DNA from: a virus
Reading direction: 5' to 3' (one strand)
UHGV virus genome: UHGV-0112027
DNA length: 12,469 nt
Shown here: in pieces, positions 3,269 to 4,194 of the stretch
How the letters are laid out: each line of letters starts with the position of its first letter
Position numbering within the stretch: position 1 is the stretch's first letter
Notes under the pieces: model-generated
Told to the model about the DNA's origin: nothing
The model's input: the letters and a program-made list of their open reading frames with translations, nothing else
Database searches by the model: none
Position numbers and translations under genes: made by a program

Positions 3269-4194
3269 AAATCCACCCCGTAAATCCAGTCAGTGTTTGT
3301 CAGGTCGAGTTTTGATTTTCCGGCTGTCACGCCAGCCTGTTGCTTGTTACGGTTGATTTCGAGTTGGGTCCACTTGTCGCGGAGTTTGGCCGGACTTAGC
3401 ACGTTACCGGACCAGAAGTTGTCCTGGCATGCCCAGCGGAACAGCACGCACATGTCGCGGTGGTTACGTCCGTCACGTTCACGCATCAGGCGGATATCGT
3501 TAGCCCACCCTGCAAAATTCGGTTTTCTGGCTGATGGCGCGATGGTCTTCACCATGTCAAACATCCACTCTGCGGCGGTCAGGTCTTCTGCTGTCCCCCA
3601 CCTGCTGCCGCTCTGAATTGCAGCATCTGGTTTCTCCACAGGAAGATCGTTTTCTGGTTGGTCAGAGGATTCGCCAGAATTCTCGGACGAATAAGGTTTT
3701 ATATTGTCTTTTGTTAGTTTGTCTTTTGTGTTTACCTGATTCGGGTAAGTGCCTTTACCTGATTTGGGTAAACTTTTCTTACCTGATTCAGGTAAATTTA
3801 CCTCTTTCAGGTAAACTTTATTTTTCTTACCTGATTCGGGTAATGTTGACCATTCACTGACCACATTATTAATGCCGATATTCCGCCCGCTCTGAATAAA
3901 AATCCCACGCTTTACCAGAACACTTTTTGCAGCAGAACACTTGTGCGGCAATATCCCGGTCAACTCGGAAAGTTGCTCGTTGCTCACCCAATCCAGTTTT
4001 TTATTAAAGCCATATGTTTTGCGCATGACAGCCAGGAAGACCAGAAGCTGGTGCTGTGTTAATCCGGCCAGCATCACAGCTTCCAGCAACTCATTTGCAA
4101 TGCGCGTATAACCATCATCGAGATCTGCCACGCGCGGCTCCTTTTGTGCCGCATCCGGCACTGGAAAATTGAATATCTCAGCAGTGTTTGCCAT
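3265..4194 (-). CDS. O: Replication initiator O-like protein (divergent N-terminal iteron-binding domain, lambda-type C-terminal P-interaction domain)
   Basis: ATG at 4194 with GGGAGG RBS 4 nt upstream (track ORF extends to an unlikely start at 4284). N-terminus MANTAEIFNF...VADLDDGYTRIANELLEA parallels lambda O (MTNTAKILNF...VADLDDGYARLSNMLLEA); C-terminus ...DLTNTDWIYGVDL is lambda-O-like; iterons lie inside the gene. Confidence 0.85.
   Translation of the reverse strand: MANTAEIFNFPVPDAAQKEPRVADLDDGYTRIANELLEAVMLAGLTQHQLLVFLAVMRKTYGFNKKLDWVSNEQLSELTGILPHKCSAAKSVLVKRGIFIQSGRNIGINNVVSEWSTLPESGKKNKVYLKEVNLPESGKKSLPKSGKGTYPNQVNTKDKLTKDNIKPYSSENSGESSDQPENDLPVEKPDAAIQSGSRWGTAEDLTAAEWMFDMVKTIAPSARKPNFAGWANDIRLMRERDGRNHRDMCVLFRWACQDNFWSGNVLSPAKLRDKWTQLEINRNKQQAGVTAGKSKLDLTNTDWIYGVDL
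3732..3843. repeat. Origin of replication iterons: five 17-bp palindromic repeats TTACCTGATTCGGGTAA (variants) inside the O gene, adjacent to an AT-rich tract (about 3700-3731)
   Basis: Copies at 3732-3748, 3755-3771, 3779-3795, 3798-3814 and 3827-3843; each is TTACC-N7-GGTAA; spacing 19-29 bp. Architecture matches ori-lambda (iterons then AT-rich region in the O reading direction), but the iteron sequence differs from what I recall for lambda. Confidence 0.85.

Follow-up and report, generated by a model that had tools for sequence, protein, structure and literature searches.

Organization of the O–P region

The window, i.e., the whole 12,469-nucleotide stretch of UHGV-0112027 that was analyzed, carries the replication initiator gene O and the helicase loader gene P on its minus strand. 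The following features were assigned in and around these genes:

2567–3268, minus strand: P gene, helicase loader, overlapping the O stop codon
3265–4194, minus strand: O gene, replication initiator of 309 aa (ORF list, Pfam and alignment with lambda O)
3265–3689, minus strand: lambda-type C-terminal domain of O, aa ~169–309, presumed P-interaction domain
3663–3686, unstranded: imperfect inverted repeat CCGAGAATTC-TGGC-GAATCCTCTG
3690–3731, minus strand: A+T-rich, strand-asymmetric region, presumed DNA-unwinding element (composition, conserved motif and identity switch)
3850–4134, minus strand: origin-binding N-terminal domain of O, predicted winged helix (Pfam Phage_rep_O, aa 21–115; AF2 model)

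The O frame is open further upstream to an ATG at 4284, which gives the 339-aa form (3265–4284) found in most public annotations. We took O as 3265–4194 for three reasons: M31 of the long ORF is where the alignment with lambda O begins; the ATG at 4194 has GGAGG 4 nt upstream; and the O homologues of Klebsiella phage 6 LV-2017 and Salmonella phage SEN34 start at the equivalent Met. The O product matched Pfam Phage_rep_O (PF04492) over the full profile at aa 21–115 (E = 7.5e-34), and the P product matched Phage_lambda_P (PF06992; E = 9.5e-62). With its overlap of the O stop codon, P fits the translationally coupled helicase-loader gene expected beside O in a lambdoid O-type module. The literature assigns P binding to the O C-terminus, and the roles of the O domains have been summarized (PMC6022878).

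The genes around O and P encode a LexA-like CI repressor, Gam, Bet, Exo, an integrase and a Dam methylase, and YdaS/YdaT-like genes occupy the positions of cro and cII. Together, these genes make up a lambdoid prophage early region. All ORFs that were checked, among them O, P, cI, cro, exo, bet, gam and int, are full-length with intact domains.

Five palindromic iterons inside O

The initial annotation claimed five TTACC-N7-GGTAA iterons inside O. A pattern scan of the window confirmed five exact sites, all within the minus-strand Phage_rep_O ORF; in gene order, these are:

Iteron 1, 3827–3843, unstranded: TTACCCGAATCAGGTAA; read as LPESGK
Iteron 2, 3798–3814, unstranded: TTACCTGAAAGAGGTAA; other frame, VYLKEVN
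Iteron 3, 3779–3795, unstranded: TTACCTGAATCAGGTAA; perfect 8-1-8 palindrome, read as LPESGK
Iteron 4, 3755–3771, unstranded: TTACCCAAATCAGGTAA; read as LPKSGK
Iteron 5, 3732–3748, unstranded: TTACCCGAATCAGGTAA; other frame, TYPNQVN

The 17-bp consensus is TTACCCGAATCAGGTAA. The sole other similar site in the window, with one mismatch, lies at 12262 within int. Dinucleotide-preserving shuffles contained a mean of 0.15 sites, and in none of the 200 did the number reach the observed six. A repeat finder placed the five iterons in a single 22-nt direct-repeat family with plus-strand start-to-start distances of 23, 24, 19 and 29, i.e., 29/19/24/23 bp in gene order, which makes iteron 1 an additional site, 29 bp upstream of iterons 2–5. 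The array corresponds to codons 118–155 of the 309-aa O, between the N- and C-terminal domains, and the range of 3700–3843 first assigned to the origin comprises the iterons (3732–3843) and the first 32 nt of the A+T-rich region (3700–3731). An array of five 17-bp palindromes fits the lambdoid O-type module, which has at least three to four sites of 16–19 bp placed approximately two helical turns apart. The position of the iterons in the window is homologous to that of the annotated iterons of lambda, 933W, phage 21 and phi80.

The iterons were also said to dictate a repeated peptide in the O linker. This holds at three of the five sites (LPESGK, LPESGK and LPKSGK) but not at the other two, which are read in a different frame. 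If the dependence ran the opposite way, the repeats would be a side effect of a low-complexity LPESGKK linker peptide and have no DNA function; three sites do encode LP(E/K)SGK, and the linker is rich in K, S and G. However, the two sites in the other frame (VYLKEVN and TYPNQVN) keep the same 17-bp palindrome, and palindromic symmetry has no protein-level explanation. In addition, the DNA consensus, the spacing and the A+T-rich motif are conserved across ten genera (see below), at a position homologous to annotated iterons of the four phages named above. As the palindrome is kept in two reading frames, the constraint acts on the DNA and the peptide repeat is a by-product. Therefore, the peptide-repeat explanation was rejected as extremely improbable.

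A+T-rich region and inverted repeat

The region at 3690–3731 lies directly downstream of the last iteron, as the lambdoid O-type module requires. Its A+T content is 76%, compared with 46–52% in its flanks, and A makes up 60% of its O coding strand. It opens with CACAAAAGACAA, a motif conserved in all 15 loci of the TTACC class described below. The imperfect inverted repeat to its right is near-identical to that of lambda and occupies the same position; the inverted repeat of the lambda origin has a function there.

Mosaic junction with lambda

Over its whole length, O was 67% identical to lambda O at the amino acid level. Identity was 48% in residues 1–117 (the N-terminal domain) and 24% in residues 118–155 (the iteron-encoded linker, which is 10 residues longer than that of lambda) and rose to 96% (138/144) in residues 166–309, the C-terminal domain ending in ...DWIYGVDL. 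P was 98% identical to lambda P (228/233). That is, the N-terminal domain has diverged and the O C-terminus and P are lambda-like, as the initial annotation had stated. At the nucleotide level, identity to lambda was ~55% through the last iteron (11–21 matches in 30-nt blocks); from ~3730 on, successive blocks gave 23/30, 27/30 and then 28–30/30 (>90%), continuing through P. This sharp switch in identity after the last iteron indicates a mosaic junction where the iteron array gives way to the A+T-rich region (~3700–3730); at this point, ACACAAAAGACA is common to lambda and the window.

We aligned the region with the O genes and origins of lambda, phi80 and phage 21, and the iterons were not identical to the lambda ori. 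The annotated lambda iterons are of the ATCCCTCAAAACGAGGGA type and its variants (TCCCT-N7-AGGGA), whereas those in the window are TTACC-N7-GGTAA, so the claim that the iteron sequence differs from that of lambda was correct. No ATCCCTCAAAACGAGGGA-type site, which marks the lambda ori class (lambda, 21, 434 and 933W), was present in the O region of the window.

TTACC-class loci in other genera

We scanned the N-terminal 165 residues of O against one genome per species, which returned 30 loci. Exact TTACC-N7-GGTAA sites were found in the homologous part of the O-like gene at 15 loci from ten genera, giving 71 sites in total. These loci were the window, Klebsiella phage 6 LV-2017, and loci in Enterobacter, Pseudocitrobacter, Klebsiella, Kluyvera, Xenorhabdus, Pantoea, Providencia, Arsenophonus and Sodalis. 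The inner seven positions lay outside the search pattern; the unselected inner positions were nevertheless conserved, with A at 7 and 8 in 71/71 sites, G at 6 in 59/71 and C at 5 in 52/71.

The last four sites were spaced 19/24/23 in 12 of the 15 loci, and one further locus had its last three sites at 24/23; the Arsenophonus and Sodalis loci showed other spacings. The copy number ranged from three to nine, the nine iterons of the Kluyvera locus having arisen by triplication of a 48-bp two-iteron unit. Iteron 1 was absent or degenerate in several homologues. The gene after O differed among the loci:

Lambda-type P: the window, two Pantoea loci and Arsenophonus
DnaC/IstB-like AAA+ loader: Klebsiella phage 6 LV-2017, Enterobacter, Kluyvera and Xenorhabdus
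Toprim and DnaB-like primase-helicase: third Pantoea locus and Providencia
DUF6475 protein: Klebsiella sp.

Across these loci, the iteron module is kept, whereas the O C-terminus varies and four different partner genes follow O. The N-terminal domain thus travels with the iterons and with the start of the unwinding element as a single cassette, which directly supports modular exchange. The proposal that this locus reflects a modular exchange of origin specificity was thus upheld, both by the sharp junction with lambda and by the N-terminal/iteron module on non-lambda C-termini elsewhere. Textbook accounts since the late 1970s have treated the O N-terminus with its iterons as one exchangeable unit of specificity and the O C-terminus with P as a second. 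In classical lambda genetics, Furth and co-workers reportedly found in 1978 that ori specificity is determined by the N-terminus of O and P specificity by its C-terminus.

Further sites and comparator phages fell into sibling specificity classes:

TTAGC-N7-GCTAA: HK97 gp54 (P22 gp18-like), SEN34 and eight genomic loci; one bp per half-site from the TTACC class
TTCCCGAAAACGGGAA (16 bp): phi80 iterons
Lambda iterons: phage 21 (four copies) and 933W (six copies)
AACCC-N7-GGGTT: two Aeromonas loci
TTACC/GGTAA half-sites with a 5–6 bp spacer: Pectobacterium and Serratia loci

A candidate recognition helix that tracks the iteron class

In an alignment of the N-terminal domains, one segment tracked the iteron class. 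It reads PHKCSAAKS in the TTACC-N7 class, identically in 13 of the 15 members, the other two having Ser for the first Pro. The corresponding segment is ATKCSTA(K/R)N in the TTACC-N5/6 class, HHTHVCxAKN or H(H/Y)THCS(A/T)AKN in the TTAGC class, and PVKRCNEAK in lambda.

We modeled O residues 1–125 with AF2 (mean pLDDT 61.5; core 70–84). The model contains helices at 47–61, 72–79 and 83–95 and a hairpin at 99–108. The third of these helices is the presumed recognition helix (aa 83–95, PHKCSAAKSVLVK), and it opens with the covarying segment. A Foldseek search of the model against the PDB gave no match at E<=0.001; the weak top matches were mostly winged-helix domains of the MarR, Crp/NtcA and IclR types. 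A PDB sequence search with O likewise returned no solved structure of an O homologue. Since no PDB match was significant, the winged-helix assignment draws on topology and these weak matches, and a winged-helix fold of the modeled domain is plausible. The covariation suggests that ori specificity resides in the O N-terminal domain, probably in the helix containing PHKCSAAKS.

The same covariation bears on whether the palindromes, which are of operator-like size, could instead be operators for another regulator, such as the upstream YdaS/YdaT-like proteins or the CI-type repressor. The sites vary together with the O recognition helix and go with the O N-terminal domain rather than with the genes upstream, as in Klebsiella phage 6 LV-2017, which has a different cro/cII set and the same iterons. 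In addition, no further exact copy was found in the cI–cro intergenic region or in the rest of the window. An operator role in place of O binding is therefore hardly credible.

Prevalence of the allele

The whole O gene matched 15 phage records at 97.5–99.4% identity over its full length. All of them annotate it as replication protein O with P adjoining, and they include PhiR26_1, Lambda_4C10, 4A7, 1W, 3W, Perceval, Turner, IdasGreatGrand and other PhiR phages. The protein cluster of O at 90% identity has 7825 members, and the N-terminal and iteron segment was found at a coverage of >=80% in 2297 of 5426 complete E. coli genomes (~42%). The iterons carried no annotation in the phage 4A7 record or in the other public records inspected. 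As a lambdoid origin, this allele is ordinary and very common; its kind has long been known, and public records already list the gene as O. The initial annotation had regarded the locus as a clean example of modular exchange; the exchange itself is supported, but the example is not an unusual one.

Defective prophages are frequent in E. coli and no more than 12.5 kb of this one is visible, so we considered whether its origin is a decayed relic that no longer fires. We regard this as unlikely: the replication, recombination, regulatory and integrase genes have their full length and intact domains, none of the five iterons deviates from the pattern, and the same allele, at 97.5–99.4% identity, occurs in isolated plaque-forming or induced phages.

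Proposed function of the origin

The sequence anatomy, the conservation at the DNA level, the covariation with the helix and the mosaic junction are direct observations. With these features, the region is very probably a lambdoid prophage replication origin embedded in the initiator gene O and belonging to a non-lambda specificity class. By analogy with lambda, we infer that O binds the iterons, that the DNA is unwound, and that P and DnaB are recruited at this origin. Dimers of the winged-helix N-terminal domain of O would bind each of the five 17-bp palindromic iterons, and the O-some built on the array would place the neighboring A-rich unwinding element at 3690–3731 under stress. The lambda-type C-terminal domain of O would then recruit P bound to host DnaB, leading to helicase loading. 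The cassette of N-terminal domain, iterons and A+T-rich start is joined at ~3700–3730 to a lambda-type O C-terminus and P.

Relation to the phage 82 origin

The allele is likely to be exactly the classical phage 82 origin type, sequenced in ~1979–81, in which case the iteron class is nothing new. Grosschedl and Hobom reportedly dealt with the phage 82 origin in 1979 (said to be in Nature 277:621). Moore, Denniston and Blattner (said to be in Gene 14:91, 1981) and Furth and co-workers (1978) reportedly described five repeats in the phage 82 ori, a C-terminal half of 82 O that resembles that of lambda, and an 82 P that is interchangeable with lambda P. This description matches the anatomy observed here.

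The distribution of the allele points in the same direction. Only 16 of 50,697 records hold this O allele, and the 14 best non-self matches of the phage 82 record X92588, which covers the nin–Q region, are exactly carriers of it; these best-match phages include PhiR47_2, PhiR68_2, 4A7, 4C10, 1W, 3W, Perceval and Turner. However, the N-terminal/iteron query matched no phage 82 record, although the collection has partial ones; the nin–Q matches are 94–96% identical rather than identical, in genomes that are mosaic among lambdoid phages; and the nin region of the window has no match to X92588. The last point rules out that the window is phage 82 itself. The repeat sequence of phage 82 was not found in the openly searchable literature.

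It is rather doubtful that the TTACC-N7-GGTAA class has never been explicitly described as an origin-specificity class. If this were nevertheless true, no lambda-type origin would be more common in E. coli than this class, which occurs in 42% of complete genomes, and its N-terminal domain, iterons and unwinding element would form a portable cassette that occurs with at least four different downstream replication partner genes. The TTACC class and the P22/HK97 class, which differ by one bp per half-site with a matching helix change, would in that case provide a natural system for the recognition code between initiator and iteron. The coordinates and the consensus can be used for annotating ori in thousands of E. 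coli prophages, and the TTACC/TTAGC pair offers a test case for initiator specificity and for replication incompatibility or cross-activation among co-resident prophages.

Comparison with known origins

Among the closest known systems is the lambda ori/O–P module, represented also by phages 21 and 434 and by the Stx phages 933W and P27. In the window as in lambda, ori is embedded in O and separates the N-terminal domain, which binds DNA, from the C-terminal domain, which binds P; the 5-N7-5 palindromic geometry of the iterons is likewise shared. In both, the A-rich unwinding region starts with ACACAAAAGACA and is followed by the same inverted repeat. Iterons 2–5 of the window are spaced 19/24/23 bp, compared with 20/24/23 in lambda. 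The window has five iterons, whereas lambda has four and 933W has six, and the recognition helix segment is PHKCSAAKS in the window and PVKRCNEAK in lambda.

Two candidate comparators were set aside: the six-iteron origins of Stx phages are not of the same class, as their iterons are lambda-type, and phage 21 is not a distinct comparator, as its ori is that of lambda. Of the six iterons of Stx phages, only four were strongly bound in vitro (PMC7466680). By analogy, the five iterons of the window need not all be equivalent, and iteron 1 may be bound unequally.

The P22 gene 18/HK97 gp54 class shares with the window its architecture and the ACACAAAAGACAA motif that follows. Position 4 of its half-site is G, whereas that of the window is C, and its recognition helix reads HHTHVCxAKN in place of PHKCSAAKS; the combination of TTAGC-N7-GCTAA with the HHTH(V)C helix that marks the class was not found in the window. 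The N-terminal domains of the two classes are ~45% identical, and the whole HK97 protein is 34% identical to the window O. The C-terminus of the O-like HK97 protein pairs with a DnaB-like helicase, whereas that of the window pairs with P; SEN34 combines the TTAGC class with a lambda-type C-terminus and P.

Phi80 gp15/gp14 resembles the window in having an O-like initiator with four annotated internal sites, an A+T-rich stretch, a GAGAATTCTG..CCTCTGAC inverted repeat and a P-like partner. The phi80 protein is 42% identical to the window O over its full length but does not have the lambda-like C-terminal block, and the TTCCCGAAAACGGGAA iterons of its class were not present in the window ori.

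Plasmid origins such as those of pSC101 (RepA), R6K (pi) and P1 (RepA) also place initiator-binding repeats beside an A+T-rich unwinding element, and their initiators are winged-helix proteins. However, plasmid iterons are direct repeats that are bound by monomers and lie outside the rep gene, whereas the iterons in the window are palindromes, presumably bound by dimers, and lie inside the coding sequence of their own initiator.

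Conservation of the A+T-rich element and plasticity of the iterons

The A+T-rich element was located at the following positions in the window and in three comparison loci, each numbered in its own coordinates.

3700-3731, window: A+T-rich element
~1220-1255, locus L001: A+T-rich element
~1870-1905, locus L036: A+T-rich element
~2950-2990, locus L031: A+T-rich element

Among the O-type loci examined, the motif ACAAAAGACAA lies 3' of the last iteron in the lambda, HK97 and Aeromonas types as in every other specificity class apart from phi80, indicating that the predicted unwinding element is far more conserved than the iterons. 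The motif often occurs in two or three copies at intervals of ~11-12 bp, the second of which has degenerated in the case of lambda. The predicted unwinding element may also act as a recognition element in its own right.

The copy number of the iterons is plastic. Kluyvera sichuanensis (L010, 2852-3059) carries nine exact sites, spaced 29/19/29/19/29/19/24/23, as a 48-bp unit of two iterons has been triplicated, and Arsenophonus nasoniae (L020, 2912-3069) carries seven. With each of these expansions the O linker gains length in frame.

Variants of the O N-terminal domain

O homologues with ~55% identity in the N-terminal domain were observed in Pectobacterium polonicum (L018, ~2866-2935) and Serratia marcescens (L021, ~2820-2905). 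Their loci keep TTACC/GGTAA-like half-sites with a spacer of 5-6 bp as compared with 7 (for example, TTACCGAATCGGTAA), and the recognition-helix motif is also changed, to ATKCSTAKN. These changes would imply another half-site register for the predicted dimer.

The O N-terminal domain was also found in other proteins, of ~375-381 aa, in Enterobacter sichuanensis (L017) and Klebsiella grimontii (L019), both at 2501-3620. These proteins are 68-74% identical to O over residues 1-115 and carry an unrelated C-terminal part fused to the domain. Neither TTACC iterons nor the A+T-rich motif were present within 2501-3620 of the two loci; therefore, the origin-binding domain appears, from these sequences, to have been reused away from an ori context.

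A chimeric O gene was identified in Escherichia phage D2 (OM475427, 1412-2433). Its first ~250 nt are 99.6% identical to the window's allele, and the remainder switches to lambda O sequence, including four lambda iterons; two 'O' CDSs are annotated because a frame break splits the gene. Either D2 O is a natural recombinant with a crossover within the DNA-binding domain, in which case this domain and its iterons would be mismatched, or sequences of two lysogen-derived phages were merged into a chimera during assembly.

Annotation and provenance of O records

The O frame of the window can be extended upstream of its ATG as follows.

4195-4284, minus strand: 30-codon 5' extension of the O frame, ahead of the ATG at 4194

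The ATG at 4194 is the lambda-homologous start and is preceded by a Shine-Dalgarno sequence; the extension overlaps the YdaT-like gene at its stop codon. The start used differs between public records, i.e., 339-aa and 309-aa forms occur within one 90% cluster. As the homologues of Klebsiella phage 6 LV-2017 and SEN34 do not have the extension, the start of the 339-aa form probably reflects an artefact of annotation.

Enterobacterial lambdoid O sequences were also observed on short contigs binned to non-enterobacterial MAGs. A 3.6-kb contig of a Candidatus Nanosynbacter MAG (L035) encodes a lambda-type O linker and C-terminus (...NQVNTKDKLTKDNIKPFSSENSGESSDQPENDL), and a 3.3-kb contig of a Paraclostridium MAG (L028) encodes an O of the TTAGC class. 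In both cases, a prophage fragment has most likely been mis-binned or has come in as a contaminant.

Relationship to phage 82, Rac and lambda

In the phage collection compared, the nin-Q region of phage 82 (X92588) was 94-96% identical to that of a group of recently deposited phages, among them 4A7 and D2, which are members of Bievrevirus, as well as 4C10, 1W, 3W, Perceval and the PhiR phages. This identity suggests that their lineage includes classical phage 82. The nin region of the window (1-2570) gave no match to X92588.

The window also contains the following genes.

6116-7030, plus strand: 304-aa ORF with a DUF6414 match (E=2.4e-10), with the CI repressor gene on one side and the gam-bet-exo block on the other
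4281-5084, minus strand: YdaS-like (77 aa, HTH) and YdaT-like (181 aa) genes, at the cro and cII positions

In lambdoid phages, the place between the CI repressor gene and gam-bet-exo often holds exclusion or defence cargo, such as rexAB in lambda. The 181-aa YdaT-like protein is labelled a 'CII-like activator' in public phage records. Lambda encodes Cro and CII where the window has YdaS/YdaT-like genes instead; the window here resembles the Rac prophage, which likewise carries YdaS/YdaT-like genes.
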